Part shown: piece after piece, positions 1-27,683 of the stretch
How positions within the stretch are numbered: position 1 is the first letter of the stretch
Layout of the letters: each line of letters starts with the position of its first letter
Source of the DNA: an uncultured bacterium
GTDB taxonomy: Bacteria > Margulisbacteria > WOR-1 > CAVSGV01
Length of the DNA stretch: 32,000 bases
Assembly: GCA_963699255.1 (NCBI GenBank)
Contig: OY969425.1
Location: forward strand, 420,001-452,000
Direction: 5' to 3'
Position numbers and translations under genes: made by a program
The notes under the pieces: generated by a model
What the model was told of the DNA's origin: nothing
Seen by the model: only the letters and a program-made list of their open reading frames with translations
Database searches by the model: none

Positions 1-1726
1 CGAGGCAGTGGCTTGAGGATACCCTTGGATCGTCGGTCTGGGTCTCATTGATCTTTATCCCTTTAACGAAATAGGTTTCAATGTCATAGCCCCCGTTAAC
101 GGTGGAATATCTCAGCGTCTCCTTTTCAAAAGCCTCAGGGTTCAAGGTCAGCATGCCGCACCTGAAAAAGTAGGGGAGAAGGTCGCGGAACCTGAAATCG
201 TATTCTATGTCAACCCTCGGTTCGTTCACGTGAACGTAAATTGTCTTCCAGAGGTCGCCTCCGGCGATCGGTATCTTGCATGTGACAGGTACCCTACCGG
301 CATGTTTGGAAAGATCTTCAGGCAATATCAGCTGTGTCTGTTCCAGGTCCGTCGATTTCTTGTTCCCGTCTTCCTGTATGATCGTGTGCCCGGTGTACTG
401 GTCGGTAGAGAAGCTTATCTGGTCGTAATAATCATGCGGGATGGTGCCGGCCATATGTGTATCATGTATCTTCGGGAATGTGAGTTTCTTTATGGCGCCG
501 CCCCGCCTGCTCATGAGCTCGATCCTGACATGCGGGGTGATGATCGTTTCGCCTTCGATTTTGACGCCGCCTTTTGAAGCCCTGATCACCGCGGGAGCGG
601 TCTTGTCGAACTTCGCAGTGATGTTATCCAGATACCCGAGCTTATTCCGGAGCTCCGTATATTTTTCATCCGTGGTGAACGTCCTGAAGTCGCTAGCAAA
701 AAGATAGCATAGCTTATCCCACATCTCCCTGGTGGCCTTTTTACCCGCATTTGATAGCCTTTCATACAGTTTGAAGCACTGGGTGTTCACTCTGGTGTTA
801 TCCCTGCCGCAGACAGCCCATCTTGTCACGTTATATTTCGCCTGTTTTTTCACGACAACGGGATACTGGGGAAAGCCGACCTCGACCTCTTTTTTGGGAG
901 GTATCTTTTTGATGGCCGTTGAAGGCGTTACAACTTCGATACCTTTGGTCTTTTCGAGCCCGGCGAAAAGATCTTCTAGTCTCTTGAGGTCGCCCTGATA
1001 GTCGAACGGCTTGTATAAAAAGTCGGAGCTTCCGGGAGAATAATTGAATATCTCCCAGTCGGACCCGTATAGCGGAAAAGCTCTGTCTTGAGCATTTGAT
1101 CTTTGAGCGTTAAGATATTCAATGTAATCATCAAGAGTGATTTCGTTCTTTATGTAGCGTTGGAACTTCTGGAAGGCTATCGAGCTGTTCCAGATTAGAC
1201 GGATCTTCTGGTCGTCGGTGCCTTTGAGAAGGAGAGGGGAGTATTTGAATTCCGCGGGAAAGTTGCCGAACTCCTGTGAGTTATCCCAGTCAAGCACAGT
1301 GGCCCCGTATCCGCCTTTTTTGATTACTTTTACAAGGCCTTTTGAGTAAACCTGTTCGTTGAGATAGAAGATTTCCGGGATGAAACCGAGTATCTTTTTA
1401 TAAACGCGGTTGCCCATCTCGATGTTATGCTGATTCACCTCCGCCGGTATCAGCGGCATGATGTTCTGCGAATAGCCGGAGCCGATAACCTCGCATTTTC
1501 CTTGAGCGCATCTGGATTTGAGTCCCGTGATGAAGCCTTTGTCCAGCGATGCTATCTTTTCCATGGTGTAAGCGGGGAATTCCAGGCCGAGGGCGACATC
1601 ATATTTGTCCAGCATTTTAAGGACGGGCCAGTAGCATTTCTCGATCATCGCCGGGTACTGGAATTCCGGGATGCTTGAGAATTGCAGGTTGGCGTGAAAG
1701 AACGTATATAAATAAAGTTTGCTCAT
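1..1726 (-). CDS. GH57-family glycoside hydrolase-like protein (3' end truncated by the window edge)
   Basis: Absent from the ORF track because it has no stop inside the window. Manual minus-strand translation from the ATG at 1726..1724 gives 575 uninterrupted codons (MSKLYLYTFFHANLQFSSIPEFQYPAMIEKCYWPVLKMLDKYDVALGLEFPAYT...). Segments resemble GH57 conserved regions: FFHANLQ, CEVIGSGYSQNIMPLI, YLNEQVYS (candidate nucleophile Glu) and YGSDWEIF (candidate acid/base Asp). Family assigned from motif memory only. Confidence 0.55.
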   Translation of the reverse strand, partial: MSKLYLYTFFHANLQFSSIPEFQYPAMIEKCYWPVLKMLDKYDVALGLEFPAYTMEKIASLDKGFITGLKSRCAQGKCEVIGSGYSQNIMPLIPAEVNQHNIEMGNRVYKKILGFIPEIFYLNEQVYSKGLVKVIKKGGYGATVLDWDNSQEFGNFPAEFKYSPLLLKGTDDQKIRLIWNSSIAFQKFQRYIKNEITLDDYIEYLNAQRSNAQDRAFPLYGSDWEIFNYSPGSSDFLYKPFDYQGDLKRLEDLFAGLEKTKGIEVVTPSTAIKKIPPKKEVEVGFPQYPVVVKKQAKYNVTRWAVCGRDNTRVNTQCFKLYERLSNAGKKATREMWDKLCYLFASDFRTFTTDEKYTELRNKLGYLDNITAKFDKTAPAVIRASKGGVKIEGETIITPHVRIELMSRRGGAIKKLTFPKIHDTHMAGTIPHDYYDQISFSTDQYTGHTIIQEDGNKKSTDLEQTQLILPEDLSKHAGRVPVTCKIPIAGGDLWKTIYVHVNEPRVDIEYDFRFRDLLPYFFRCGMLTLNPEAFEKETLRYSTVNGGYDIETYFVKGIKINETQTDDPRVSSSHCL

Positions 1727-1761
1727 TCAGTATATTCTATAATTATTCGATTCCGTTGTCG

Positions 1762-2490
1762 CTATGCAATCCGTTTTTTTATCCACGCGTGATCCGGGTC
1801 GTCAAAAGGGGACAGCTTCCTTTTGTCGCCCGCCAGGATCCACAGGTAATAAAGGCTGTATCCGGGCGCCGCGACGACGGGATGGTATCCTTTCGGGATC
1901 ATTATTATGTCATCGTTCCTGATAGTGAACGTTCTATCGAAGCCTTTCCCGTATATCCTCTGAAGACCGAAACCCTGCGGCGGAGAAATGCGGAAATAAT
2001 ACAGCTCCTCCATTTTCACCTCTTTGGGAGGCCTGTTCATGTCGTGCTTATGGGGCGGGCTGCTGGACCAGTTCCCGGGAGGATTGATCGTTTCTCCAAC
2101 CAGCATGTGATCGGCGTCCGTATCCCCATCAATAATATTGAAAACCTTTCTTTCCCAGTTGCCTTTTCCCACGCGCTTTACTTTTACCATGCTCGGGGTA
2201 ATCAGCTTCGGGGCGAATTTCCTTGAAGCTTTGACCCTGCAGACGGCTATTGTGGTCGGCGCAAGAGCTTTTATTGAACACTGCGAATCGATCGGGATAT
2301 ATGCCGCGTGGGCCTTATCTTTGAATACGGACCTTCTTCTGCCCATTTTGCCCAGAGGACTGTTATCGACTATCAGGCTGCATAGACCGTCAAGCAGCAC
2401 CAGCGCGATCTCACGGTTGCCGGAATCGATCTCATGCTTTTGACCTTTTTTCAGGCGCAGTAATTCGAATAAAATCTTTTTAAGTCCCAT
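1762..2490 (-). CDS. IolB/KduI-like cupin sugar-acid isomerase (5-deoxy-glucuronate isomerase family)
   Basis: GNWSSSPPHKHD followed by EELYYF matches the IolB signature (GNWSSYPPHKHD). The track start (GTG 2496) sits only 1 nt after the Shine-Dalgarno. The ATG at 2490 has GGAGGTG 7 nt upstream, so the start is refined to 2490. Confidence 0.7.
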   Translation of the reverse strand: MGLKKILFELLRLKKGQKHEIDSGNREIALVLLDGLCSLIVDNSPLGKMGRRRSVFKDKAHAAYIPIDSQCSIKALAPTTIAVCRVKASRKFAPKLITPSMVKVKRVGKGNWERKVFNIIDGDTDADHMLVGETINPPGNWSSSPPHKHDMNRPPKEVKMEELYYFRISPPQGFGLQRIYGKGFDRTFTIRNDDIIMIPKGYHPVVAAPGYSLYYLWILAGDKRKLSPFDDPDHAWIKKRIA

Positions 2491-2492
2491 GT

Positions 2493-3698
2493 TCACACCT
2501 CCGAAGTATCGATCTTTACGGTCGAAGCGGCCTTGTCAAATATCTTGTTGGTTTCCTCATAGTCCTTTCCGACAACGATTATATAGCACACGATATCCGC
2601 GCAGCTCTTGTAAGGTGATATCAGGTCGCCTTTTTTCGTATACATTATTACCTGTTTGACGCCTTTGATCTTCTTCGCTTTTTCAACGCCGGTAATGCTC
2701 ATGACTTTCCCCGGTTTTGGGAATATGCATTTGCAGATGGAGACCCTGTCCCATTTGGATTTAGTTGCGGATTCCGGCATAGGTTTGCCTATGGCTATTG
2801 TCAGGGCTGCCTTTATCGGATCCATTCCTGTTGCCAGAGGGGTCGTGTATTGGGAATGGAAGCCGCCGCTCAATCTTGCGGGCATTTCGATTATCTTAGG
2901 GCCGTCATTGGTCAGTATCATGTCTGCCTTGGCCGGGCCGAAAGTGATGCCCAACGATCTGGCGGCTTTTTCCACCACCTTATATATATCTTCCTGTATA
3001 TTTTTCGGCAGTCTTGTCGGATTTGAATGTCCGATCTCGATCTTGTACGGGTCGAAGTCGTATATCCTGTCAACGATCCCGAACCTGTGATGAACGTTCC
3101 TGTAAACGATGGTTTCAACGCTTTGTTCCGTACCCTCGAGATGTTCTTCGATCAGGGCCGTTTTGGTGGTGGAATATTTTTGCGCATCGATCAGAGCTTC
3201 CTTAAGCTCATCCGCCGAAACGATCTTCCTGGAGCCTCTTGAGGCGGCGCTGTCGACAGCTTTTACCATCACGGGGAATCGTCCGATCTTTTCCACCGCT
3301 CTTGCTGCGCCGTTAAGATCCTTTACTTCAAAGGACATGGCCGTGGGAACGCTGTCCTCGAGCCATTTCTTCTTCATCAGAGCTTTATTGTTGCTTCTTA
3401 CGGCCACGTTCATCGGTATGCCGGGAAGACCTAATGCGTTTGTTACAGCCGCGACGGTCACCGCGACGTCAGCCCCGGCAAAAGCCCCTATGATATTGTA
3501 TTTCCCTTTGTTTTTCAGGGCGAACCTGACATGTCCTTCCACGTTCTTCGTGTCCATCACGACCCTGACGTCCGCGTGCCTGAAGCCGGGAGCCTTCGAG
3601 TCGCGGTCGGTGGCGATAACGTTAAGTCCCATTTTTTTCGCGGTCAGTATCGCCGGTACCTGCATCAATCCCGCGCTGACGATGATTATAGATCTCAT
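2493..3698 (-). CDS. ATP-grasp ligase, paralogue 1 (L-amino-acid-ligase / carboxylate-amine ligase-like)
   Basis: N-terminal pre-ATP-grasp pattern IIIVSAGLMQVPAILTAKKMGLNVIATDRDSKAPG. Central FPVMVKAVDSAASRGSRKI. C-terminal GPAKADMILTNDGPKIIEMPARLSGG. ATGA overlap with the upstream SDR stop. Confidence 0.75.
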   Translation of the reverse strand: MRSIIIVSAGLMQVPAILTAKKMGLNVIATDRDSKAPGFRHADVRVVMDTKNVEGHVRFALKNKGKYNIIGAFAGADVAVTVAAVTNALGLPGIPMNVAVRSNNKALMKKKWLEDSVPTAMSFEVKDLNGAARAVEKIGRFPVMVKAVDSAASRGSRKIVSADELKEALIDAQKYSTTKTALIEEHLEGTEQSVETIVYRNVHHRFGIVDRIYDFDPYKIEIGHSNPTRLPKNIQEDIYKVVEKAARSLGITFGPAKADMILTNDGPKIIEMPARLSGGFHSQYTTPLATGMDPIKAALTIAIGKPMPESATKSKWDRVSICKCIFPKPGKVMSITGVEKAKKIKGVKQVIMYTKKGDLISPYKSCADIVCYIIVVGKDYEETNKIFDKAASTVKIDTSEV

Positions 3699-4459
3699 AT
3701 TCCGTATGATAAGAACCCTCCGTCAACGCAGATCGTTTCGCCTGTGATGAAATCACCCGCGCTGCTGGCCAGGAGAAGGGCCGCGCCTATAAGGTCTTTC
3801 GTGTTGCCGAGCCTTCTCATGGGCGTTCTGTCCAGGATCCTGTTCAGGCGGGCTTTATCCGAAAGCGCTTTTTTGTTCAGTTCGGTCCTGAACACGCCCG
3901 GTGTTATCGCGTTGACATTGATATTGTATCTTGCCCATTCGCAGGCGAGAGTTCTAGTAAGCGCCAGAACTCCGCCTTTGCTGGCGCAGTAAGCGGCGGC
4001 CTCTGTCAAACTGACGTGCGACCCGAGCGAAGCGATGTTTATTATTTTGCCTGAGCCCTGTTTTTTCATCTGTTCGCCGAAAACCTTGCAGACCAGGAAT
4101 GTGCCTTTCAGGTTAACGTCGATGACCTTGTCCCATTCTTTTTCCGAGACCAGGAAACTATCTTTTTTCTGATGTGTGCCCGCGCAATTCACCACAACGT
4201 CGATCCTCTTGAATTTTGAAACGATCTTTTTTGAGAGGGCAGTCAGGCTTTTTTCGCTGGTAACATCCACCGGACAGATCACCCTTTTATCAGAAGGGAC
4301 CCCGAGAGATTCATATGTTGAGAGATTCTCCCGTCCGGACCTTGAGGATATGATGACGGACGCGCCGAAATCTTTTAATCCTCTGGCAATATCCTTTCCG
4401 ATACTTCCACTGCCGCCTATGACAAGGGCCATTTTTGAACTCAAGTCAAATGGATTCAT
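3695..4459 (-). CDS. Classical short-chain dehydrogenase/reductase, KduD/gluconate-5-dehydrogenase-like
   Basis: VIGGSGSIGKDIA glycine-rich loop, VNCAG, catalytic YCASK, and NINVNAITPG / ITGETICVDGG tail typical of the KduD/IdnO subgroup. Strong SD AGGAGGAAG upstream of the ATG at 4459. Confidence 0.8.
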   Translation of the reverse strand: MNPFDLSSKMALVIGGSGSIGKDIARGLKDFGASVIISSRSGRENLSTYESLGVPSDKRVICPVDVTSEKSLTALSKKIVSKFKRIDVVVNCAGTHQKKDSFLVSEKEWDKVIDVNLKGTFLVCKVFGEQMKKQGSGKIINIASLGSHVSLTEAAAYCASKGGVLALTRTLACEWARYNINVNAITPGVFRTELNKKALSDKARLNRILDRTPMRRLGNTKDLIGAALLLASSAGDFITGETICVDGGFLSYGI

Positions 4460-4489
4460 AAATGCTTCCTCCTATTATTAGCCGGACTT

Positions 4490-5600
4490 TTAATTCGTTA
4501 TCACGTAGATCGGGACATCGTAATTGGACTTCCATTTTTTCCTGTCGTATATCCCGTTTTGCACAAGTATGCTGACAAGGCCTTTGTGTTCCCTGGCTTT
4601 TTTCATGTCATCCTCCGCCGTGAAACGGCTTATGACGCGCGACTTATAAGATAATCGATGATTTTTCACTTTACTGTTCAGGCTGAAATTTATAAGCTCT
4701 TCAAATGGCGAGATGTTAAGGCCGCTGGGAACGATGTAAAGCGACAAAAGTATCCCATGGAACCTGGGCGCCACTTCCATTATCATAAGTTTTCCGTTCT
4801 TGTCCCTTATCAGAATCTCCCTTTACCGGTCCGTGGGTCAAGCCGATCGCCCCACATGCTTTTTCGAATATCTTATAGACGCGTTCCTGTTCGGCCAGCG
4901 GTAATATCGAAGGGCATCGTCCCTCGATAACGACGGCATAGGGGAGTTTGCTGGAGGTCTTGTCGCTGATGCCCAGCCTTATCAGCTTGCCCTTATTCAT
5001 GATGCCGTTCACGTCGTGAAGAGTGGCATCCTCAATATATTTTTCGCAGACCACCTGTTTCGTGTATGAATGCTTCATCGCCCGGTCAAATGCGTCTTTG
5101 ATATGTGACGGGTTGTCCACTACCGTCACTCCCAGGCAGCTGGAACTGTCGGCAGGTTTCAGGATAAGTTTGCCTCCGTGTCTCGCGAGTTCTTTTTTAA
5201 CGTCTTGATATGATCTCACCGGTATGCTGAAGGGGGAGGGGATCCGGTGATGAAGGAAAACATCTTTCATCAGGCCCTTGTGTTCGCATATATATGAAGC
5301 TTTTGTCGAGTGCCACTTTATACCGAGAGCGCCGGCCACTATGGCTGCGGAAAGGAACAGCTCGGTGCCTGTGTAGACCGTCAGGATCCTGTCATCCAGC
5401 TTGTTGCTGTACAGGTATGAAAGGATGCCGAACGCGTCGCGGCCGTCAATAACGACGGGTATGTCGCATTGTGACAGCGCTTTGGCTTTTGGATCGCGGT
5501 TCGTTACGATGGTCTTTAAGCCTTTCCCTTTGGCGATCTTCAGCTGGGGCGTGTTAAGGTCGCCCATCCCGATGAAAAGTATGCGATCCTTCTTAACCAC
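4490..5600 (-). pseudogene. ATP-grasp ligase, paralogue 2, interrupted by a single-nt frameshift (or an assembly indel)
   Basis: Track ORFs 4716..5600 (294 aa) and 4490..4786 (98 aa) are two halves of one ATP-grasp. Frame 1 reads ...GLTHGPVKGD then turns to nonsense. The +1 frame continues ILIRDKNGKLMIMEVAPRFHG..., the canonical ATP-grasp C-terminal core. Total length is 1111 nt = 3n+1. GTG start with AGGAGAA SD. Confidence 0.75.
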
Positions 5601-6741
5601 TTATAGTTCTCCTGTCAGACAGATGCGGGAAAAGCCCGGTAACTGCCCCAAGTATCTGTTTTTTCGAATTCACGAGCAGATTGTATCCTTTCACTTTCAT
5701 TTTTCCCTTCTTTGAGCCAAGCGTCCAGGGTTCGAGGAGCTTTATATATTTAAGTTTACCGCGTTTTGCCGGGACGTTCACGTCATAGAACAGCGCTGAA
5801 CTGCCTTTGAACGGCGGCTGAGGGTCTACGGGGAGGTTCAAATGGACGTTCACATAATTTCCCAGCAGATCGTATCCGTAAGATTCCTTGCACAAATAAA
5901 TCCCATGAACAGGCAGAAATTCAGCCTCTATCAGATTTAAATCCATATTATTGGATAATATTATATCACAGTTGAGAGCGAGCGGGCCGAACCTGAACAC
6001 TCCGCAGAGAGCTTCGATCATCCGGATGATCTTTCCTCGAAGTTGTGTCAGCGTATCATCCGCTTCAGCGGTGGATCCCGTTATTTCTCCCAGTTCGTTG
6101 TCATATAATGTCCATCCGGGGCTTAAAAAGATCACTTTTTTGCCGTTCCATATGGCGTCGACAGCGATCTCGGGTCCATTGACGAATGTTTCGATGACGG
6201 CGTCCTTTTTCAGGCTGTGTTTGACCGCATCGGCGAAGGCAGGTTTTAGCTGATCCAGATGAGAAACAAAGTTGACGCCTTTTCCTCCCAATCCGCTTGT
6301 CGCGGGCTTTATGACAACGGGAAGGTCCCGCTCACGGACACTTTTAATGTCTTTCCATGTCCTTATGGAAGAAAGCTTTGCTTTGTTGAATGCCTTCCTT
6401 AACAGGTTCTTATTGAGTAGTATATTCATCGTTCTTTTGTCGATATGTTTTATTCCAAGCTTTGCCTTCAGGGTTTCAACCGTCCTGAAAGGCTCTCCCG
6501 TGCATGCCGTCATGACTTGTTTGATCTGTTTGATCTCATCTTTGAACCCTATCTGCAGGCCTTTCCATGTTCCCGCGGCGTCATATGTGCTTACGTTAAT
6601 AAATCCGTCAACGATGTCCCTTGCCGGGGCGTCCGGATTGATATCCGTCGCGATAATGCGGTATCCGAGGGCTTTGATCCGTTCTATATATTTGATCTGT
6701 GATGCTCCGCCGCCGATGAAAAGCACAGTGTCTTTTGTCAT
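5593..6741 (-). CDS. ATP-grasp ligase, paralogue 3
   Basis: VLFIGGGASQIKYIERIKALGYRIIATDINPDAPA (same N-terminal pattern as paralogues 1 and 2), LPVVIKPATSGLGGKGV, and NLIEAEF near the C-terminus. TAATG overlap with the pseG-like stop. Confidence 0.75.
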   Translation of the reverse strand: MTKDTVLFIGGGASQIKYIERIKALGYRIIATDINPDAPARDIVDGFINVSTYDAAGTWKGLQIGFKDEIKQIKQVMTACTGEPFRTVETLKAKLGIKHIDKRTMNILLNKNLLRKAFNKAKLSSIRTWKDIKSVRERDLPVVIKPATSGLGGKGVNFVSHLDQLKPAFADAVKHSLKKDAVIETFVNGPEIAVDAIWNGKKVIFLSPGWTLYDNELGEITGSTAEADDTLTQLRGKIIRMIEALCGVFRFGPLALNCDIILSNNMDLNLIEAEFLPVHGIYLCKESYGYDLLGNYVNVHLNLPVDPQPPFKGSSALFYDVNVPAKRGKLKYIKLLEPWTLGSKKGKMKVKGYNLLVNSKKQILGAVTGLFPHLSDRRTISG

Positions 6742-7709
6742 TACTTTTCAAGTCCCCTCAACAGCTTAATGATCCTTTGGACGCCTTTTCCATCGACCAG
6801 CTTTTTGCCGCCATTTGATAATTTCAGCGATCTCTTTTGATCGTGCTTCAGGCGATCCACAACGTTCAATATGGATGCTTCAGAAACATCCTTGAAGTAT
6901 CCCAGAGAGATAGAAGTTCCAAGTTTTTCAAAAGTGCGGATCTCATCTTTCTCCCTCATGTAATTGCTCATAATAAACGCAGGAACTCCCATGTAAGCAA
7001 GCTCATACAGGGTAGTTCCGAACGCCGTTATCGCAAGGTCCGATGAGGCCATAAGTTTTGCTATGTTCTTCGGGTTCTTAATGACCGTGAACCTGCGGTC
7101 TGACGGAATGTGCTGTTCTTTGAATGCGGCCCCCAGAACAATAACAGCCTTGAAATCCCATTTGAGATGTTTAAGTGCCTTGCAGACCTTCTGCGTGAGC
7201 CTGTTCGGGTCCGACCCTCCCATCGTAACTAGTATCGTGAACCTGCCGTGACGGATCCTCTTTGATTTAAGGAATTCGGGATTCAGCGGGAAGTATTCAG
7301 CGCCGATATATTTCTTCCCCTTAAACCCTTTCCATCTCAAGTTGTCCCTGAAATGAGATACCGGGAATATCACGATATCCGAGATGAGCCTAGCCTTGCT
7401 CGCGTTATCGATCAGGCATATTTTTGAGCTCTTCGATCTTAGCTCTTTTATCTGCGCGGATACGTCGCCCTTCTGGTCTATGACGGTCACTCCCGGATTA
7501 AAAAGTTTGATCGGGGAGCTTGAGAGCAGAAAAGCCTTAAAGCCTTTGTCCTTCAACATTTTGATCGGTGCATTATCACCGTTGACGAGAAAGCGAATCT
7601 TTTTACCTTTTGCTCTCAGCCCGGAAGCGATAGCGATAGAACGCCTCAGATGACCATAACCGGCCTCGGAACCGGCTTTGATGAAGAACAAATAATCGCA
7701 GTTGATCAT
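6741..7709 (-). CDS. pseG: PseG/SpsG-like UDP-sugar hydrolase (GT-B fold, UDP-2,4-diacetamido-2,4,6-trideoxy-hexose hydrolase family)
   Basis: N-terminal FFIKAGSEAGYGHLRRSIAIASGL matches the PseG hallmark (R.DAs..iG.GHvmRcl.LA). C-terminal half ILVTMGGSDPNRLT ... AITAFGTTLYELAYMGVP. ATGA overlap with the LmbE stop. Confidence 0.65.
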   Translation of the reverse strand: MINCDYLFFIKAGSEAGYGHLRRSIAIASGLRAKGKKIRFLVNGDNAPIKMLKDKGFKAFLLSSSPIKLFNPGVTVIDQKGDVSAQIKELRSKSSKICLIDNASKARLISDIVIFPVSHFRDNLRWKGFKGKKYIGAEYFPLNPEFLKSKRIRHGRFTILVTMGGSDPNRLTQKVCKALKHLKWDFKAVIVLGAAFKEQHIPSDRRFTVIKNPKNIAKLMASSDLAITAFGTTLYELAYMGVPAFIMSNYMREKDEIRTFEKLGTSISLGYFKDVSEASILNVVDRLKHDQKRSLKLSNGGKKLVDGKGVQRIIKLLRGLEK

Positions 7710-8389
7710 TTTACAAGGCGCACCAGCTCAAAGGCCTCGGCTGCTTTAAGCCCGCTGTCGACGCCACGCTTCTTCGCGAGGATGGTTATTGCCTCGACGG
7801 ACCTTGGATGCGGCCATTTTCTTATCTCGCTTTTGTATGCTTTCATTGCGGCGATCTTTGTTTTTAATGTGCCGGAAATATCCATGTAAACGTTCGGCTG
7901 GAAAGAACACGGATAGTTCCACTCGGTGGAGGAGGGGACCTCGAAAGAAATGATCTTTTTTACCGTTTCTCCCGGAAGAGGGCGGCACGCGGTCAATACG
8001 GCCTCGAACGTTATCCTGTGATCGATGTTAAGATCGGCTCTGTGATGAGTGTAAATGACATCGGGTCTTACCTTTGCCTTGATCTCCTCGACGATCTTGA
8101 CTATGTCGAGGAATTCACACGCGTCGAACCTGTTGTCAGGAAGGTCTTTTGTGAAAATTTGTCTTATCTTCAGCAGTTTCGCGGCGTTAGAAGTATACCC
8201 TTTCAGGTCCTTGATCGCCTTGCTTCCGAGACCGCCTTCTCTCTTCATGTATCTGGACGTTATCCCTTCTCCGAGGATGAGAGCGTAGACCTCGTGTCCC
8301 TCGCGCGCGAGGCGGGCCATTGTTCCCCCGCAGCCGAGTACCTCGTCATCCGGATGGGCCGCTACGATCAATATTTTTTTCGTTTTCAT
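7706..8389 (-). CDS. LmbE/PIG-L family Zn-dependent N-acetyl-sugar deacetylase
   Basis: ILIVAAHPDDEVLGCGGTMA (AHPDDE motif) and THHRADLNIDHR (second His/Asp metal motif). ATGA overlap with the WbqC-like stop. Confidence 0.85.
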   Translation of the reverse strand: MKTKKILIVAAHPDDEVLGCGGTMARLAREGHEVYALILGEGITSRYMKREGGLGSKAIKDLKGYTSNAAKLLKIRQIFTKDLPDNRFDACEFLDIVKIVEEIKAKVRPDVIYTHHRADLNIDHRITFEAVLTACRPLPGETVKKIISFEVPSSTEWNYPCSFQPNVYMDISGTLKTKIAAMKAYKSEIRKWPHPRSVEAITILAKKRGVDSGLKAAEAFELVRLVK

Positions 8390-9108
8390 GACAGCATCTC
8401 CTTTATCTTATTTTTATCCACGTTCTTTGACATTATAACATCAAAAGCTTTATCTGGTCCGGCATTGAACAACAGGTCAACTATGGCCATACTCGGCTGG
8501 AATTCCCCCCACATTTGAGGATATGAAGGGTGTTCGTATTCCTGAAAAAGCAGCTTTATCCCTTTGCTTTCAAAGGACGCTTTATCCGCGTAATCTTTGC
8601 CGAGAGCGCCGAAAACGAACATCTTCGCCTTAAAATGTTCGCAGAGGTCCAGGATGAGCTGTTCTTTTTTGTTCGTTATTTTCAGTTCGCTTTGCACGTG
8701 AACTTTTGTCTGGGTCTTAAGTTCTTTAAGAAAATAGTCCATGGTATATTTGAGAAGCGGGAACAGCCTGTCCCAATCTTTCTTGTACAGGTCCTCGAAA
8801 AAATCGCTGTAAAGGTGGAAGCAGGGCGCTTTTTTGTAGTTCATGTAAAGGCTCTTCCAGTGTTTGGACCGCCAGTCCTCCCTATTGTTGATCTCCATGT
8901 CTTTTATGCGCTTATCCGTGTGTCCTGAGATCAGGATCGGAACGGTAAGCCAGATAGGGCCCTGGGGCGTCTTGATCTTGTTCCTGTTCGTGAAGCTGTT
9001 CTTTTCGAACTGGACATCATCGAGCATCACAAAATCATCACTTATCGCTATCTTATGGAAAAGTCCGAGCCACGGCAGATAAGCGGGTTGATGCGCGGTT
9101 AAGATCAA
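8386..9108 (-). CDS. WbqC-like family protein (polysaccharide-cluster protein of unknown function)
   Basis: N-terminus LTAHQPAYLPWLGLFHKIAISDDFVMLDDVQF matches the WbqC-like family opening (QPnYlPwlGyF.Ki...D.fv.lDdVqf). TTG start overlaps the NeuB stop (TTGA). Confidence 0.7.
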   Translation of the reverse strand: MILTAHQPAYLPWLGLFHKIAISDDFVMLDDVQFEKNSFTNRNKIKTPQGPIWLTVPILISGHTDKRIKDMEINNREDWRSKHWKSLYMNYKKAPCFHLYSDFFEDLYKKDWDRLFPLLKYTMDYFLKELKTQTKVHVQSELKITNKKEQLILDLCEHFKAKMFVFGALGKDYADKASFESKGIKLLFQEYEHPSYPQMWGEFQPSMAIVDLLFNAGPDKAFDVIMSKNVDKNKIKEMLS

Positions 9109-10160
9109 CGTATAGCTCCCATTGTTATCATCTGGCCTTTTTCTATGTTCCTTTTTGCCGTCATGTTCAATATCTTATCTTTCATCTTCGGCGCAAGGCC
9201 CGTGCCCGGCCTTTTGAATTCGATATTTTGGGGCGTTATCTTATCGCCTCGCTTTATTTTGACCTTCGCGACGATGCTTCTCCTCGCGTCCATTCTGGTG
9301 CGGATCTCCATCTTTGTGGGCTCAAGCTTTGAGGTCCCCAGCATCACCTCGGCTTTTCTTACAGCGCTTACAAGCGCCTTCAGTTCTTCCGGGTCCGATG
9401 AGAACCAGTGGTCGGGTCCGGGCAGGTTACGGTCAAGGGTAAAGTGCTTTTCGATGATCTTTGCACCCATTGCCGCGGCCACAACGCACGCTTCTATGCC
9501 TTCCGTGTGGTCGGAAAATCCGGTCACGATCTTGAACCTGTCTTTTATAGAGTTCATTTTCCTCATATTGACCTGCTCCGGTTTTGCGGGATAAGACGCG
9601 ACGCAGTGGAGAACAGCCAGTTTATCGTTGCCGGTTCTTCTGATCGTGTAGACGGCGTCGGCGATCTCGGACTGATACGCCATGCCGGCGGAAATGATCA
9701 TCGGCTTGTTCTTCGAAGCGTAATATTTCATGAGCTCCAGGTTTGTCAGGTCATCTGAGCCCACTTTGATTATAGGCATGTCCGTTATCCTTAGCAGCAT
9801 GTCCAGGTCTGATGGGTTCTGGGGAGTGGAGAAGAAAATCATCCTTTTCTTTTTACAGTAAGAGCATATATCCTTCCATTCCGGCTCGCTGAACTGGTAT
9901 CTCCTGAACATTCCGATCGCCGATTCGGTGATCTTTTTCCCCTGCGATCTGTATGTGATGGTCTGTGCGGGGCTTGAAATGAATTCCTCGGCTTTGAACG
10001 TCTGGAACTTTACCGCGTCGGCGCCGCACTGTTTAGCCGTATCGATCATCCTCTTCGCCATTTTGACCCTGCCGTTGTGATTGATGCCGGCTTCGGCAAT
10101 GATGAATACAGGGCGCCCTTCACCGATCGAAAGCTTATCCGTTATTCTGATTGTCTTCAT
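9105..10160 (-). CDS. pseI: NeuB-family nonulosonic acid synthase (PseI/LegI/NeuB type) with C-terminal SAF domain
   Basis: PVFIIAEAGINHNG, DAVKFQTF, GFSDHTEG, and C-terminal RRSIVAKVKIKRGDKITPQNIEFKRPGTGL (SAF/antifreeze-like domain). ATGA overlap with the upstream gene. PseI versus LegI/NeuB specificity is inferred only from the pseB/pseC/pseG context. Confidence 0.85.
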   Translation of the reverse strand: MKTIRITDKLSIGEGRPVFIIAEAGINHNGRVKMAKRMIDTAKQCGADAVKFQTFKAEEFISSPAQTITYRSQGKKITESAIGMFRRYQFSEPEWKDICSYCKKKRMIFFSTPQNPSDLDMLLRITDMPIIKVGSDDLTNLELMKYYASKNKPMIISAGMAYQSEIADAVYTIRRTGNDKLAVLHCVASYPAKPEQVNMRKMNSIKDRFKIVTGFSDHTEGIEACVVAAAMGAKIIEKHFTLDRNLPGPDHWFSSDPEELKALVSAVRKAEVMLGTSKLEPTKMEIRTRMDARRSIVAKVKIKRGDKITPQNIEFKRPGTGLAPKMKDKILNMTAKRNIEKGQMITMGAIR

Positions 10161-11011
10161 TCCATCCCCTTAACTTTTGACGCGACATAATCCCTGGCTC
10201 TTCTCATGTCCTGCGTATCCAGCATGTCGATCGCTTCTTTCAACTCTTCCTTTAGGTCCTTGAATATCTTTTTCTGGATTATATTCTTGTTCACGAGCAG
10301 CAGATATGGTTTTTTGTTGAAGAGCCGAACGATATCGGAAACGGAAAAAGCCTTATTTGTTTTATACAGTTCATCGAACACCATGCAGATGAGGGCGTAG
10401 TCTTCGGGCGTGTCCAGGGTTACCCTGATATCGCGCCTGTTCAGTTCTTTGGGGACCTTCAGTACTCCGATCTCGAACTTTTCCGGATGAGACCAATAAA
10501 TGTACGGGGTGACGTGTTCCGTTTCTTCCACTTTTTTCGCGTTCATGAACGTTTCTTTCAGGGTGTCATAGGACATTATCTCCACGCTCATGCCGACGGG
10601 ATATGAGCCGCAGGCCGAATAATCGTTTTTATCCCTGATGTGCATCTTTATGGTCCTGTCTATGATGCCGGGATCTATGAAAGGGCAGTCGCTTGTCAGT
10701 CTCAAGACGATGTCGGAGCCGTTCTCTTTTGCTGCAAAGTAATACCTGGAAAGCACGTTCTCCTCGCTGCCCCGGAAGCATCCGATGTGCAACTTGCGTG
10801 AGAGCCGGTAGATCACGTCATCAGCTCGGTTCGTTGTTGTCGCGATTATGATCTGATCGACCATTTTGCTTCTTTTTATCCTTCTTATCATCTGCTCTAA
10901 GGCGGGTGTTTTGGATCCGTAGGGCAGGGGAAGCATGACCTTTCCCGGAAGCCTGGAGGATGTCATCCTTGCCTGTATTATTGCGGCGATCTTTAAAGGC
11001 TCTTTAGCCAT
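10157..11011 (-). CDS. SpsF-type (COG1861-like) cytidylyltransferase, candidate CMP-nonulosonate synthetase (PseF role)
   Basis: IAAIIQARMTSSRLPGKVMLPL ... QIIIATTTNRADDVI ... CFRGSEENVLSRYY is the SpsF / acylneuraminate cytidylyltransferase-family pattern. Confidence 0.7.
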   Translation of the reverse strand: MAKEPLKIAAIIQARMTSSRLPGKVMLPLPYGSKTPALEQMIRRIKRSKMVDQIIIATTTNRADDVIYRLSRKLHIGCFRGSEENVLSRYYFAAKENGSDIVLRLTSDCPFIDPGIIDRTIKMHIRDKNDYSACGSYPVGMSVEIMSYDTLKETFMNAKKVEETEHVTPYIYWSHPEKFEIGVLKVPKELNRRDIRVTLDTPEDYALICMVFDELYKTNKAFSVSDIVRLFNKKPYLLLVNKNIIQKKIFKDLKEELKEAIDMLDTQDMRRARDYVASKVKGME

Positions 11012-11931
11012 TCGTATTCCTCCCTTAATCCTTTCTTGATATCTATCTTTGGCCCGTAGCCTAAGACCCGTTTTGCCTTTGTAATATCGGCCGAGGTGTG
11101 GGCGACGTCGCCTTTTTGATTTTCCAGGTATTTTACTTTCGCCTTTTTACCGGAAATGTCCTCGATCAGCTTGATCGTGTCGTTCACCGAGATCCTTGAG
11201 CCTCCGCCTATATTGAAGATTTCCCCGGGCGCGCAGCCGCAGTTCGCCGCCTTCATGTTCGCGTCCACTACGTCAGAAACGAAAGTAAAATCCCTTGTCT
11301 GCCTGCCGTTGCCGTATACCGTTATGTCATCGCCGTTGATAATGGCCCTGATGAACCTGTTAAACCCCATGTCCGGACGCTGCCTGGGGCCGTAAACTGA
11401 AAAGTATCTTAAAGATACCACGGGGATCCCGTGATTTTTTGAATAAAGGTAGCACAGGGATTCCGCCGCGAGCTTTGTGACGCCGTACGGGGAGACTGGC
11501 CTGGGGGCGAAACTCTCTTTCGTCGGAAGCTTTTCCGAGTCACCGTAAATGGAGGAAGATGATGCAAAGACCATTTTTTTTATCTTTTTGTCCTTCAGGG
11601 CTTCAAGCAGCCTCTGGGTGGCAAGTATATTGTCCTCGACGTATACCGAAAAGCTTTTTCCCCAGCTTGCCCTGACGCCGGGCTGGGCTGCTTCGTGGAA
11701 CACAAAGTCCGTTCCGTCCAATAATCTTTCGAGGTCGCTGTCAAGAAGGTTTTCCTTCACAAGTTTGAATCCTTTGCGGCCGACGATCCCGGAAATATTC
11801 TTTTCCTTGATTACTTTTGAATAATAATCCGTGAAGCAGTCTATCCCGGTAACTTCAAAGCCGTCCTTCAGAAGTCTTTGGGAAAGATGCGACCCGATAA
11901 ACCCCGCGGCGCCGGTCACAAGGGCTCTCAT
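10993..11931 (-). CDS. NAD-dependent nucleotide-sugar epimerase (extended SDR, UDP-glucuronate/UDP-hexose 4-epimerase-like)
   Basis: MRALVTGAAGFIGSHL, catalytic YGVTKLAAE, YGPRQRPDM...RDFTFVSDV. Start refined from 11943 to the ATG at 11931, which forms an ATGA overlap with the pseC stop and has GGAGGA 5 nt upstream. The 11943 ATG lies inside that SD. Confidence 0.75.
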   Translation of the reverse strand: MRALVTGAAGFIGSHLSQRLLKDGFEVTGIDCFTDYYSKVIKEKNISGIVGRKGFKLVKENLLDSDLERLLDGTDFVFHEAAQPGVRASWGKSFSVYVEDNILATQRLLEALKDKKIKKMVFASSSSIYGDSEKLPTKESFAPRPVSPYGVTKLAAESLCYLYSKNHGIPVVSLRYFSVYGPRQRPDMGFNRFIRAIINGDDITVYGNGRQTRDFTFVSDVVDANMKAANCGCAPGEIFNIGGGSRISVNDTIKLIEDISGKKAKVKYLENQKGDVAHTSADITKAKRVLGYGPKIDIKKGLREEYEWLKSL

Positions 11932-13076
11932 TTGTTCCTCCATTTATCGATCGTGTCTTTGACCGATCCTGTCACGCGTCCGATGTCGTTTTCCGTCATT
12001 TTCTGGTGGATCGGAAGGGATATCTCGCTTTCATAGAAAGATTCGGCAATTGGGAAATCGCCCTTTTTGTATCCGAATTTATTTCTGTAATAAGGCTGTA
12101 GCGGAACGGGGATATAGTGTACGTTCACACCTACGCCCAGCTTCCTGAGTCCCTCGAAGAATCTGCCTTTTTCTTCCGATCAGATTTCCGCGGAGCCTTA
12201 TCGGATAAAGATGATATGACGACCGCGCGTATGCTTTTTCAACGGGAGTGCCGATCTCTTCCATGCCGGCAAAGCTCTTGTTGTACCTGTCCGCGATGTG
12301 CCTTCTTGTCTTGACGAACCTGTCGAGTTTTTTAAGCTGTGAAATTCCCAGCGCGCATTGCATGTCCGTCAGCCGGTAGTTGTATCCTAGGTCCCGCATT
12401 TCATAATACCAGGGTCCGTCGCCGACAATGTCCCGAGTTATGCCGTGGGTCCTGAATTTCAGCATCTTTTCATAGAAGTCCTTATTGTCCGTCAGGACCA
12501 TCCCGCCCTCGCCGGTAGTGATGTGCTTGACCGCATGAAAGGACAGAACGGTCATGTCCGCAAGGACGCCGATCTTTTTGCCTTTATATTTTGCTCCCAG
12601 GGAATGGGCGGCGTCTTCGATTACGATAAGGCCGTTTTTTTTAGCTATCTTGTTCATTTCATCCATATCGCATGGATGCCCGGCGTAGTCGACAGGGATT
12701 ATCGCCTTTGTTTTTGAATTTACCTTCCATTTTATCTGTTCTATGGAGATCAGAGCGGTGTCGGGATCGATATCCGCAAAAACCGGGGTTCCGCCGCAAT
12801 AGATAACGCAGTTCGCGGACGCGACGAACGTGGTAGGGGACGTTATGACCTCATCTCCCGGAGTGATACCTGCCGCAAAACACGCGCCGTGAAGGGCGGA
12901 TGTGCCGGAATTAAAGGCAACCGCGTATTTAGTTCCGCAATATTCGGCGACTTTGCTCTCGAACAGTTCAACTCTAGGGCCCTGGGTCAGAAAATCGGAC
13001 CTCAGCGCAGCGGCGACGGCTTTTATGTCGTCCGCGTCTATAGATTGTGTGGAGTAGGGGATATATCTTCTTTTCA

Positions 13077-13077
<1 letters not shown>
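11928..13077 (-). pseudogene. pseC: PseC-type DegT/DnrJ/EryC1 PLP aminotransferase, interrupted by a single-nt frameshift (or an assembly indel)
   Basis: Track ORFs 12079..13125 and 11928..12128 are one gene. Frame 1 carries IPYSTQSI..., [14 protein letters not shown] (PLP Lys) and SSYHLYPIRL, then turns to nonsense. The +1 frame continues EEKGRFFEGLRKLGVGVNVHYIPVPLQPYY...ISLPIH. Length 11928..13125 is 1198 nt = 3n+1. The likely true start is the ATG at 13077 (MKRRYIPY), overlapping the pseB stop (TAATG). Confidence 0.8.
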
Positions 13078-14159
<1,082 letters not shown>

Positions 14160-14891: not shown

Positions 14892-16616
14892 TTATTCCTC
14901 ATCTCTGAACTGCATATCATATAATGTCTTGTATTTCCCGCCTTTTGCCAGGAGTTCTTTGTGGGAACCCTCTTCGATGATGCGGCCCTTGTCGAAAACA
15001 AGTATCCTGCCGGCTATCTGCACGGTTGAGAGCCTGTGCGCGATGATGAACGTTGTGCGGCCTACGATAAGTTTTTCCAGCGCGTCCTGGACAAGCCGTT
15101 CCGATTCCGTGTCAAGTGAGGAAGTAGCTTCATCCAGGATAAGGATCCTGGGATCCCTCAGTATCGCCCTTGCGATGGAGACCCTCTGTTTTTCGCCTCC
15201 GGAGAGAAGTGCTCCTCTCTCGCCGACCAGCGTGTCGTATTTGTTCGGCAGACCCATGATGAAATCGTGTATGTTCGCCGCTTTTGCCGCGCTTATTATT
15301 TCGTTGTCGGGCGCGTCAAAGCTGCCGTAGGAAATGTTCTCTTTTATAGTCCCCAGGAAAAGCACCGTGTCCTGATGGACTATGCCTATCTGCTTCCTCA
15401 GGGAATACAGCTTGCATTTTTTTACGTCAACGCCGTCAATGGAAACAGAGCCCGAAACGGCGTCATAAAACCTTGGGATAAGGTTCACAAAGGTCGTCTT
15501 GCCCGCTCCGGAGCGTCCGACCAGGGCGATGATCTCCCCGGGCTTTGTTCTTAAATTTATATTCTTCAGTATGGGAGTGCTTTTTACATAATGAAAATCA
15601 ACGGACTTGAATTCAACGGTCCCTTTAATCGGCGGAAGTTCGACCGCGTCCTTTGCGTCGGTGATCGCGGGTTTTGTGTCAAGAATCTCAAATATCCTTT
15701 CGGCGGCCGACAGGGACCGCTGTATCGCGATGGTTATCTTCCCAAGCGTTGAAATGGGGGTGGCAATAAGTCCTATGCCGACGAAGAAAGCTATCAGATC
15801 ATTTATCTTCAGCTGGCCCGCGACGACCTCATACGCGCCGTACCATATTACAATTACTACCGCAATGGCCTGGATCAGTTCAAGCAGAGGTTTCTGCGTG
15901 GCGTCGATCTGTATCTCTCTCATGGTAAGCCAGAAGCTTTTTTCCATCTCATCGCCGAACTTCTGCACCTCGTACTTTTCGGTGGTAAAGGATTTAATGA
16001 CCCTGATGCCGGCGACCTTTTCTGCGAGGATCGAATAGATGTCTCCGGCCTTTTTCTGGGTCTGACGGGCCGCTTCTCTTATCAGGGAGGAAAACCTTGA
16101 TATCGTGAATGTGATCACCGGCGCCACCAGAAGGGTCAGAACGGTAAGGCGCCAATTCAGCCTTATCAAATAGATCAGCGCGCCGGTCAGTGTCAGGATA
16201 TTCGGAAGTATCTCCGTGACGCTGAGCATCATGGCGTTCTGAAGGGATCCGGTGTCATTGACTATCCTTGCCATGACGTCGCCGACACGCCACTTGGAAA
16301 AGAAGTCAAAAGACAAGGTCTGGATATGGCTGTATATGTCTTTTCTCAGGTCAATGATCATTCTCTGTCCGGCAAAGGACATGAGATAAACCTGCCCGTA
16401 GCTTAAGAGGCTTTTAAAGAAATAAATGGCCACGGCTGCAAAAGCGATCATGTTAAGCAGATGGAAATTCTTTTCGGCTATCGCTTTTGTAAGGCCGCTT
16501 GCAATGGGTATAAGGGCGATGTTGCAGGCGGAGAGGAGAACAATGCATATCAGCGCGGCAAAGATATTCGCCGACATCGCTTTAATGTATTTAATAAGCC
16601 TAAGGTATAACTTCAT
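14892..16616 (-). CDS. msbA: MsbA-like ABC exporter (fused permease + ATPase; lipid A/lipid-linked glycan flippase family)
   Basis: Six-TM N-terminal half. Walker A GRSGAGKTT, signature LSGGEKQRVSIARA, Walker B ILILDEATSSLD, H-loop IIAHRLST. Adjacent to an LpxB-like gene. Confidence 0.8.
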   Translation of the reverse strand: MKLYLRLIKYIKAMSANIFAALICIVLLSACNIALIPIASGLTKAIAEKNFHLLNMIAFAAVAIYFFKSLLSYGQVYLMSFAGQRMIIDLRKDIYSHIQTLSFDFFSKWRVGDVMARIVNDTGSLQNAMMLSVTEILPNILTLTGALIYLIRLNWRLTVLTLLVAPVITFTISRFSSLIREAARQTQKKAGDIYSILAEKVAGIRVIKSFTTEKYEVQKFGDEMEKSFWLTMREIQIDATQKPLLELIQAIAVVIVIWYGAYEVVAGQLKINDLIAFFVGIGLIATPISTLGKITIAIQRSLSAAERIFEILDTKPAITDAKDAVELPPIKGTVEFKSVDFHYVKSTPILKNINLRTKPGEIIALVGRSGAGKTTFVNLIPRFYDAVSGSVSIDGVDVKKCKLYSLRKQIGIVHQDTVLFLGTIKENISYGSFDAPDNEIISAAKAANIHDFIMGLPNKYDTLVGERGALLSGGEKQRVSIARAILRDPRILILDEATSSLDTESERLVQDALEKLIVGRTTFIIAHRLSTVQIAGRILVFDKGRIIEEGSHKELLAKGGKYKTLYDMQFRDEE

Positions 16617-19913: not shown

Positions 19914-19983
19914 GGAACCCGCGACTAAAAGTCGCGGTTCCATGTAAAAACACTTGGAACCGAGAGTTTCACTCTCAGGTTCC
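19914..19983 (-). repeat. Two tandem isomorphic hairpins, each clamped by GGAACC...GGTTCC
   Basis: 19914-19941 is ggaacccgcgact aaa agtcgcggttcc (12 bp, 1 bulged C). 19956-19983 is ggaaccgagagt ttc actctcaggttcc (12 bp, 1 bulged A). They are 14 nt apart. The second overlaps the last codons and TGA of rfbH. On the minus RNA it is followed by AAGUGUUUUUACAU. Confidence 0.7.
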
Positions 19984-21300: not shown

Positions 21301-21312
21301 GCTATCCGCCTT

Positions 21313-22257: not shown

Positions 22258-22265
22258 TTTATGCC

Positions 22266-23195: not shown

Positions 23196-23207
23196 TTTTA
23201 TCTCCTT

Positions 23208-25732: not shown

Positions 25733-25742
25733 ACGTCCTCCT

Positions 25743-27679: not shown

Positions 27680-27683
27680 GTTA

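Follow-up and report, generated by a model that had tools for sequence, protein, structure and literature searches.

Nonulosonic acids decorate flagella, capsules and S-layers, where they influence motility, recognition by the immune system and the binding of phages, and their diversity resides largely in the N-acyl groups. For several studied organisms it is not known which enzymes add the large groups other than acetyl; in Tannerella forsythia, for instance, the glyceroyl (hydroxy-acid) N-acyl group of Pse5Am7Gra is installed before transfer, and the modifying enzymes were stated to be unknown (PMC5420450). In Shewanella oneidensis MR-1, the sfmABCDE genes encode a NeuB-like protein, a thiamine pyrophosphate (TPP)-dependent enzyme, a short-chain dehydrogenase/reductase (SDR), a methyltransferase and the ATP-grasp_4 protein SfmE (SO_3265), and the organism has PseB and PseC with no clear PseH (PMC3765264). 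Its flagellin carries a mono-N-acetyl sugar of the pseudaminic acid (Pse) type of 274 Da plus a nitrogen-free C9H16O7 unit bearing 0 to 2 methyls, and loss of sfmE results in a smaller flagellin glycan (PMC3765264); as of a 2023 preprint, the outer unit had yet to be defined chemically. The flagellin glycan of Treponema denticola is described as a nonulosonate of Pse configuration whose N-acyl group is an O-methylated deoxy-hexonic acid (PMC13439194). Here we analyze a 32,000-nucleotide stretch of contig OY969425.1 (positions 420,001 to 452,000; assembly GCA_963699255.1) from an uncultured WOR-1 bacterium of the Margulisbacteria, hereafter the window, and in particular a block of three ATP-grasp ligase genes (AG1, AG2 and AG3), an SDR gene and a cupin gene that lies within a Pse-type gene cluster.

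All long genes within positions 1-14045 are on the minus strand, and the five block genes form one minus-strand operon with genes for PseB, PseC, a NeuB-type synthase, a CMP-synthetase-type protein and a PseG-like protein. The order of transcription is PseB-PseC-epimerase-CTP_transf_3-NeuB-WbqC-LmbE-PseG-like-AG3-AG2-SDR-AG1-cupin-GH57-like. On balance we lean towards a variant Pse-type operon, in which a polyhydroxy acid derived from a sugar is ligated at the expense of ATP, in place of the acetylation normally carried out by PseH; the three ligases, the isomerase and the reductase probably attach unusual sugar-acid side chains to a Pse-type sugar. An earlier reading made from the letters alone (the sequence-only reading) had suggested a Pse-type sugar whose amino groups receive unusual acyl or sugar-acid substituents by ligation, and this core idea is supported by the gene context, by the exchange of uronate-type enzymes between loci and by the absence of PseH.

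A widespread SDR-AG1-cupin-GH57-like module

Sequence and predicted fold identify AG1 (2493..3698, minus strand) as a carboxylate-amine ligase of the L-amino-acid ligase (LAL)/PurT type. It matches ATP-grasp families and contains an LAL_C2 domain (63.2 bits, cutoff 29.4), which the profile scan did not detect in AG3 or in the repaired form of AG2. Profile matches in PDB include 3VOT (E 6e-35) and 4DIM. When the AlphaFold2 (AF2) model of AG1 (predicted local distance difference test, pLDDT, 90.9) was compared with solved structures by Foldseek, 4DIM ranked first, followed by 3VOT (template modelling score, TM, 0.83), PurT, RizA and BacD, with TM values of 0.72-0.84. The profile and Foldseek searches suggested earlier for the nearest ligase relatives thus place AG1 in the LAL/PurT group (3VOT, RizA, BacD, PurT). 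The invariant residues of the AG1 family are K146, D259, E271 and R275. By sequence comparison, AG1, AG2 and AG3 are true but distant paralogues with similarities far above chance: 29% identity between AG1 and AG2 (E 5e-35), 25% between AG2 and AG3 (E 2e-12) and 25% between AG1 and AG3 (E 1e-9).

Altogether 685 AG1 homologues were detectable, many of them with more than 50% identity. They occur in Deltaproteobacteria/Thermodesulfobacteriota, Verrucomicrobiota, Acidobacteriota, Gamma- and Betaproteobacteria, Firmicutes, Bacteroidota, Chlorobi and one Methanocella metagenome-assembled genome. A scan of one genome per species yielded 33 AG1 loci, whose open reading frames (ORFs) were labelled by BLAST against the window proteins and Pfam-checked reference ORFs. 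At least one core nonulosonate gene (PseB, PseC, NeuB, CMP-synthetase or PseG-like) was found in 27 of the 33 loci, in agreement with the proposed link of the ligases to nonulosonates and not to primary metabolism, and PseG-like homologues occur in 25. The most constant neighbour of AG1 is the GH57-like gene of about 650 amino acids (28 loci). Methyltransferases are present in 27 loci and an SDR in 26, while flagellin and Maf glycosyltransferase genes occur with lower frequencies (15 and 11 loci, respectively). The cupin was found in 14 loci, in 13 of them following AG1, with the usual order SDR-AG1-cupin-GH57; SDR homologues of 45-49% identity precede AG1 in 12 of the cupin loci. The SDR-AG1-cupin-GH57-like set is a widespread conserved module across many phyla. 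The block had been presented as one functional unit; all of its genes do share one operon here, but it consists of two modules, the widespread SDR-AG1-cupin(+GH57-like) set, whose GH57-like gene lies immediately beyond the limits given for the block, and a separate and rare AG3-AG2 pair.

The content of this module is not uniform between loci. In eight of the 33, the true glucuronate isomerase UxaC is encoded together with an SDR; in L012, for instance, UxaC scores 575.8 bits (cutoff 387), and the next gene encodes a different SDR with D-mannonate oxidoreductase as its best match. The cupin and UxaC never occur together (0/33 loci; P about 0.005 under independence, with the caveat that these loci are not phylogenetically independent and that some are incomplete). 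Four loci with neither cupin nor UxaC (L013, L019, L030 and L033) contain an aldo/keto reductase, and three metagenome contigs contain a split transketolase and an SDR directly before an AG1-like ligase. Thus, four unrelated enzyme sets, each predicted to be able to make a polyhydroxy carboxylic acid from a sugar or uronic acid, occupy one position beside AG1. This replacement of the cupin with UxaC, aldo/keto reductase or transketolase elsewhere adds weight to a sugar acid as the acyl donor.

The cupin (1762..2496, minus strand; its start may be the ATG at 2490) belongs to the IolB/KduI family (Pfam PF04962, 273.7 bits) and is a proposed uronate aldose-ketose isomerase. It contains the GNWSSSPPHKHD motif, matches the IolB-like structure 2QJV (E 7e-44) with the metal motifs HKHD...E...GYHPV aligned, and passes the NCBIfam IolB equivalog TIGR04378 (249.8 bits, cutoff 205), so the IolB motif noticed earlier at the end of the block holds at the family level. 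The orthologue in L023 scores 193.9, under the same cutoff. The SDR (3695..4459, minus strand; adh_short_C2, 208.8 bits) is a classical member of the sugar-acid oxidoreductase group and a proposed keto-acid reductase. Its best NCBIfam match is gluconate 5-dehydrogenase (231.2 bits, cutoff 279), while GolD/DthD, D-mannonate oxidoreductase (193 bits) and KduD (TIGR01832, 216.2 bits, cutoff 338.85) are likewise missed. The KduD-like tail ascribed to this protein therefore stands as membership of the gluconate-5-dehydrogenase/KduD/mannonate oxidoreductase group, but every cutoff is missed.

The GH57-like gene (1..1726, minus strand) is cut by the window start and carries an indel at 310; the intact protein has about 656 amino acids, as in the sister contig L035. 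Its match to PF03065 (74 bits for the copy in L001, an independent assembly of the same organism) covers only the first 280 or so residues of the protein of about 650 amino acids, and its match to the GH57 4-alpha-glucanotransferase 1K1W is weak. The NE and D.E.F positions are conserved when the alignment is read by eye, and the protein appears to retain the GH57 nucleophile and acid/base positions.

It could be argued that the cupin and the SDR are ordinary catabolic genes, either IolB of inositol degradation or KduI/KduD of pectin and hexuronate degradation, which stand beside a glycan operon by chance. The cupin does exceed the IolB equivalog cutoff, and the window contains altronate/galactarate-dehydratase-like and mannitol-dehydrogenase-like genes at 26.5-29.2 kb. 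However, the 32-kb window contains no iolC, iolD, iolE, iolG or iolJ-type genes and no 2-keto-3-deoxygluconate (KDG) kinase, aldolase or pectin-degradation genes (kdgK/kdgA), and the cupin adjoins ligase and pse genes. The reading frames of the two genes overlap those of their ligase neighbours, the SDR stays under the KduD cutoff, and the SDR-AG1-cupin order recurs in 12 nonulosonate/flagellin-cluster loci of Deltaproteobacteria, Firmicutes and Acidobacteria. Given this conserved synteny, chance adjacency of catabolic kduI/kduD or iolB was rejected as extremely improbable.

Several cupin-type loci of Deltaproteobacteria (L005, L007, L008, L010, L023 and L027, at about 1200-6500) also contain a class-III aminotransferase and one or two GFO/IDH/MocA oxidoreductases, located between the CMP-synthetase and PseG-like genes and absent from the window. 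This gene set suggests that a further amino group is introduced in these loci.

The nonulosonate core and the proposed N-acylation route

Both initial enzymes of the Pse pathway exceed their equivalog cutoffs and are, on these profile scores, bona fide: PseB, the inverting UDP-GlcNAc 4,6-dehydratase (13077..14045; TIGR03589, 498.6 bits, cutoff 407.75), and the PseC aminotransferase (11928..13125; TIGR03588, 511.3 bits for the intact L001 copy, cutoff 423.5). Together they would yield UDP-4-amino-4,6-dideoxy-beta-L-AltNAc with a free amine. The other genes of this part of the operon are on the minus strand as well. An NAD-dependent epimerase/dehydratase of unassigned specificity (10993..11943; PF01370, 197 bits) has LegB-like, GalE and TviC as its best NCBIfam matches, every one under its cutoff. 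The candidate CMP-nonulosonate synthetase (10157..11011; PF02348, 100.5 bits) matches the general CTP_transf_3 family of cytidylyltransferases only. The NeuB-family nonulosonate synthase (9105..10160; PF03102, 288 bits, with an SAF domain) scores 381.6 against NeuB_NnaB (cutoff 399.65) and 298 against PseI (cutoff 340.25). A divergent PseG-like UDP-sugar hydrolase (6741..7709) reaches 99.4 bits with the PseG profile TIGR03590, under the cutoff of 153.55, and gave no meaningful match in a sequence search of solved structures.

No GNAT or hexapeptide acetyltransferase that could represent PseH was found among the 30 window genes scanned. An acetyltransferase was also not found in the gap-free loci L012 and L023, nor among the 10 scanned of 36 unassigned ORFs in related loci. 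Since PseH is absent from the window, a point on which the sequence-only reading did not remark, replacement of the acetylation step is likelier than tailoring of a finished Pse. The genes at the end of the operon are closely packed, with overlaps of 1 to 8 nucleotides at the PseG-like/AG3, AG3/AG2, SDR/AG1 and AG1/cupin junctions, whereas AG2 and the SDR are separated by 30 nucleotides with a GGAGG site inside the gap. The translational coupling attributed to the whole block is thus seen at four junctions but is not uniform.

In the proposed pathway, the cupin would isomerize a free hexuronate or deoxy-hexuronate aldehyde to a keto-acid, which the SDR would reduce to an aldonic or deoxy-aldonic acid. 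AG1 would then activate the carboxylate of this acid as an acyl-phosphate and couple it to the 4-amino group of the PseC product, the nitrogen that ends up as N7 in the nonulosonate. The bulky intermediate would subsequently pass to the divergent PseG-like, NeuB-type and CMP-synthetase-type proteins; PseG-like and NeuB-type scores under the PseG and PseI cutoffs fit enzymes that accept a bulkier intermediate. A more speculative role for the GH57-like protein is release of the free uronate, with UDP-GlcA as a possible source; a gene for UDP-glucose dehydrogenase is present in L038. It is likewise speculative that LmbE strips the 2-N-acetyl group, so that AG3-AG2 and WbqC could either add a second substituent other than acetyl or lengthen the first one.

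A different acyl donor has to be considered, because the nearest solved relatives of AG1 include the dipeptide-forming enzymes BL00235, RizA and BacD, and because LAL_C2 is present. In such a case AG1, AG2 and AG3 would be LAL-like enzymes that build an aminoacyl or short peptidyl substituent, with the cupin and the SDR unrelated to the acyl donor and serving, for example, the sugar backbone. Alanyl and glutamyl substituents are known on nonulosonates, and three ligases in series would suit a chain. On the other hand, an SDR and a uronate-type isomerase, aldo/keto reductase or transketolase flank AG1 in most loci with overlapping frames, AG1 is not accompanied by amino-acid biosynthesis or racemase genes, and in the two flagellin glycans with large acyl groups whose structures have been studied, these groups are polyhydroxy acids without nitrogen. 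We therefore consider an amino-acid donor quite unlikely, and a sugar acid remains the preferred one.

The timing of the ligation is the second point on which the proposed pathway can be questioned. The ligases could act late, on a finished nonulosonate, its CMP form or a protein-bound glycan, or they could amidate the C1 carboxylate of the nonulosonate. Amide forms of Pse have been reported in Caulobacter, AG3-AG2 follow the NeuB and CMP-synthetase-type genes in L036, L037 and L040, and the Shewanella sfmE mutant still glycosylates its flagellin, with a smaller unit, and stays motile. Nevertheless, the under-cutoff PseG-like and NeuB-type proteins are as expected for an altered early intermediate, the modification in T. 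forsythia comes before transfer, and, with PseH lacking, the amine of the early intermediate stays unacetylated. Late action or C1 amidation thus appears rather unlikely, and ligation to the early amino sugar is retained as the preferred route.

Several points weigh against this pathway. We infer from gene context which acid is used, which amine accepts it and in what order the steps run, and the 33 loci behind that context are phylogenetically related to each other and partly truncated. PseH could be encoded elsewhere in the genome. An IolB-type product would give a 2-deoxy acid after reduction, while KduI-type chemistry would give 3-deoxy acids, and the chemistry here may be of either type or of neither. 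The outer unit of the Shewanella glycan was described as 'easily cleaved' in the ion source, which fits a glycosidic link too. Finally, the window operon contains no methyltransferase, and no Maf or flagellin gene was found in the window, in L001 or in L035, so that product and target may differ from those of the flagellar loci.

A broader extension of the proposal is that AG1, a uronate-converting set, the SDR and the GH57-like protein constitute a widespread undescribed pathway that replaces PseH and forms the genetic basis of the large polyhydroxy-acyl nonulosonates on the flagella of Treponema and Shewanella, and that LmbE, AG3-AG2 and WbqC strip and rebuild the second N-acyl group in this lineage, giving a product without acetyl groups. 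We put this extension forward tentatively, as a possibility that falls somewhat short of even chances. In any case, the gene context names candidates for the missing enzymes, namely AG1-type ligases and interchangeable uronate-converting enzymes. With these named candidates and cultivable carriers that include Methylotuvimicrobium, Methylomicrobium, Roseateles, Pelomonas and Alishewanella, the question is directly testable. The module enzymes would also help the enzymatic making of modified CMP-pseudaminic acids.

The rare AG3-AG2 pair and the integrity of AG2

In contrast to AG1, the other two ligases are rare. AG3 (5593..6741, minus strand; ATP-grasp_4, 27.8 bits) is a divergent ATP-grasp ligase with four matches in a word-indexed search and 15 representatives below E 1e-30 among 1.84 billion, and 27 homologues of AG2 (4490..5600, minus strand) were found in 5.8 billion proteins. 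In the loci found, AG3 is always encoded directly upstream of an AG2 homologue: AG3 homologues of 30-36% identity and AG2 homologues of 41-50% identity are paired in this way in L036-L040 and in the sister contig L041. The AG3 family keeps the ATP-grasp K145, the glycine loop G150/G152, N257-x-D259 and the Mg ligands E272-x-E274. AG2 carries GPVKGD...MEVAPRFHG and, when repaired, a full ATP-grasp domain (ATP-grasp_3, 32.3 vs 23.2). AG1 and AG2 have an E-x-x-(A/P)-R motif, whereas AG3 has E-x-E-F without the Arg. In L036 (11110-12654) and L040 (6993-8531), which represent another lineage, the gene immediately after the AG3-AG2 pair encodes a B12-binding radical SAM protein.

Three ATP-grasp genes in one nonulosonate locus are rare but recurrent, because L036 and L038 also encode an AG1-like ligase. 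The neighbourhood survey proposed in the sequence-only reading, for a triple set of ATP-grasp genes together with LmbE and NeuB, thus recovered the triple ligases, but LmbE was seen in this lineage only. The LmbE/PIG-L family de-N-acetylase (7706..8389, minus strand; PF02585, 85.4 bits) shows the AHPDDE and HxxxxxxDH motifs; it is also encoded in L041 and not in the other related loci. The WbqC-like protein (8386..9108, minus strand; PF08889, 255.7 bits), whose gene sits between those of NeuB and LmbE, was likewise seen in this lineage only. For WbqC, no relative was found among PDB structures by sequence, a literature search gave no function, and a single-sequence AF2 model was discarded owing to its pLDDT of 31.8. 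The combination of the AG1 module with AG3-AG2, LmbE and WbqC in this lineage is rare. The AG3-AG2 pair with LmbE probably adds further acyl groups.

The sequence-only reading counted three ATP-grasp genes, and all three are present and paralogous; however, no intact ORF spans 4490-5600 in the window. This span of 1111 nucleotides is split over two frames (ORFs 4716-5600 and 4490-4786). Between the window and the independent Logan assembly L001 (99.96% identity) there are five single-base indels and no mismatches. Extra bases of the window are found at GATC-like sites at positions 12160 (PseC), 4814 (AG2) and 310 (GH57-like), the extra T's lying in GAT(T)C- or GATCTT(T)-type sites. Bases missing from L001 correspond to positions 4765 in AG2 and 8505 in WbqC, with the missing A within CCC(A)GG, a CCWGG-like site. 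Accordingly, the window indels break PseC, AG2 and the GH57-like gene, while the L001 indels break WbqC and AG2. All five look like methylation-motif or homopolymer basecalling errors.

One explanation for the split frame is that AG2 is a genuine pseudogene, which would leave the organism with two working ligases. Its ORF is broken in the window and in L001 alike, and the NCBI entry for AG2 is a 283-amino-acid fragment. However, the break lies at 4814 in one assembly and at 4765 in the other, and the remaining differences between the assemblies are also single-base indels, which disrupt or restore the reading frames of PseC, WbqC and the GH57-like gene. A hybrid that follows L001 at 4814 (T removed) and keeps the window A at 4765 encodes an intact AG2 of 369 amino acids, which aligns without gaps and at 80% identity to P0125, an intact homologue of 373 amino acids from a sister metagenome contig. 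Because the two assemblies break at different bases and the hybrid is intact and gap-free, the pseudogene reading was rejected as very improbable and the AG2 break is attributed to an assembly artefact.

Neighbouring genes and comparison with known systems

Outside the operon, the 32-kb window contains further carbohydrate-related genes and no tRNA genes. An altronate/galactarate-dehydratase-like gene (27684-29171) and a mannitol-dehydrogenase-family gene (26567-27745) are located upstream in the same orientation, as are an inositol-monophosphatase-family gene (25743-26570) and a nucleotidyltransferase gene (25001-25732). These sugar-acid-type genes at 25001-29171 may supply the ligase module or serve the synthesis of another activated sugar. 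The regions 19975-25067 and 30308-31950 contain CDP-hexose-type genes for a 4,6-dehydratase, an E1-like DegT-family protein, an epimerase/reductase and a GT2 glycosyltransferase, along with one for a TPP-dependent enzyme (23208-25067); the cytidylyltransferase ORF at 31348-31950 seems to lack its N-terminus. This set resembles a branched-chain dideoxyhexose (yersiniose/YerE-like) pathway, and the TPP enzyme may be part of that other sugar pathway. The TPP enzyme was considered as a counterpart of SfmB and set aside, as it lies among CDP-hexose genes, 16 kb from the module.

Proteins of the GT-B type related to LpxB are encoded in the window (16600-17823) and in L035 (6930-8036), in the latter just downstream of the GH57-like gene; the L035 protein scores 293.9 with TIGR03492 (cutoff 219). 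Neither lies near lipid A genes, and either could therefore act as a transferase of the modified sugar. The glycan locus also includes a gene (17784-18920) for a DUF362 protein that ends in a 4Fe-4S dicluster domain.

The sequence-only reading knew of no characterized pathway with this gene combination. Our literature search found no link between pseudaminic or legionaminic acid and glucuronate isomerase, KduI or IolB; however, partial precedents exist in the sfmABCDE genes of Shewanella and in the T. denticola product. Compared with the canonical PseB-PseC-PseH-PseG-PseI-PseF pathway, the window shares the PseB, PseC, PseG-like, NeuB-type and CTP_transf_3 genes, lacks PseH, and has PseG-like and NeuB-type proteins under the family cutoffs. 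It adds nine genes to the canonical set, namely those for the epimerase, WbqC, LmbE, AG3, AG2, the SDR, AG1, the cupin and the GH57-like protein.

With respect to chemistry, UxaC/UxuB, KduI/KduD and IolB represent an aldose-ketose isomerase acting on a uronic acid followed by NAD(P)H-dependent reduction of the keto-acid, as is likewise proposed here. Unlike in hexuronate and inositol catabolism, these genes are not followed in the operon by a kinase, aldolase or dehydratase gene, and the product is proposed to be ligated and not catabolized. The LALs (BL00235, 3VOT; RizA; BacD) and PurT have the ATP-grasp fold in common with AG1 (TM about 0.8); LALs also share LAL_C2 with AG1 and Mg/phosphate motifs of the E-x-x-(A/P)-R type with AG1 and AG2. 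They differ from the present ligases in that identities are only 15-22% and in that the gene context here argues for ligation of a sugar acid to an amino sugar. The Campylobacter jejuni capsule amidoligase Cj1438 is an ATP-grasp enzyme that forms an amide between a glucuronate carboxylate and an amine in glycan biosynthesis, but its substrates are a polysaccharide-borne glucuronate and serinol or ethanolamine phosphate in place of a nonulosonate precursor.

Among nonulosonate systems, the Shewanella sfm genes and the window are alike in having PseB and PseC without PseH, together with NeuB-like, SDR and ATP-grasp proteins, a match at the domain level only. The acid-forming partner differs, being a TPP enzyme with a methyltransferase in Shewanella and a cupin isomerase in the window. 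The sfm set has one ligase as opposed to three, LmbE, WbqC and GH57-like proteins are not reported there, and the Maf and flagellin neighbours of sfm-type systems are absent from the window. Pse5Am7Gra of T. forsythia resembles the proposed product in its hydroxy-acid N-acyl group. The T. denticola glycan is O-methylated, whereas the window operon has no methyltransferase; compared by product only, it is of the class expected from the combination of an isomerase, a reductase, a methyltransferase and an ATP-grasp ligase.

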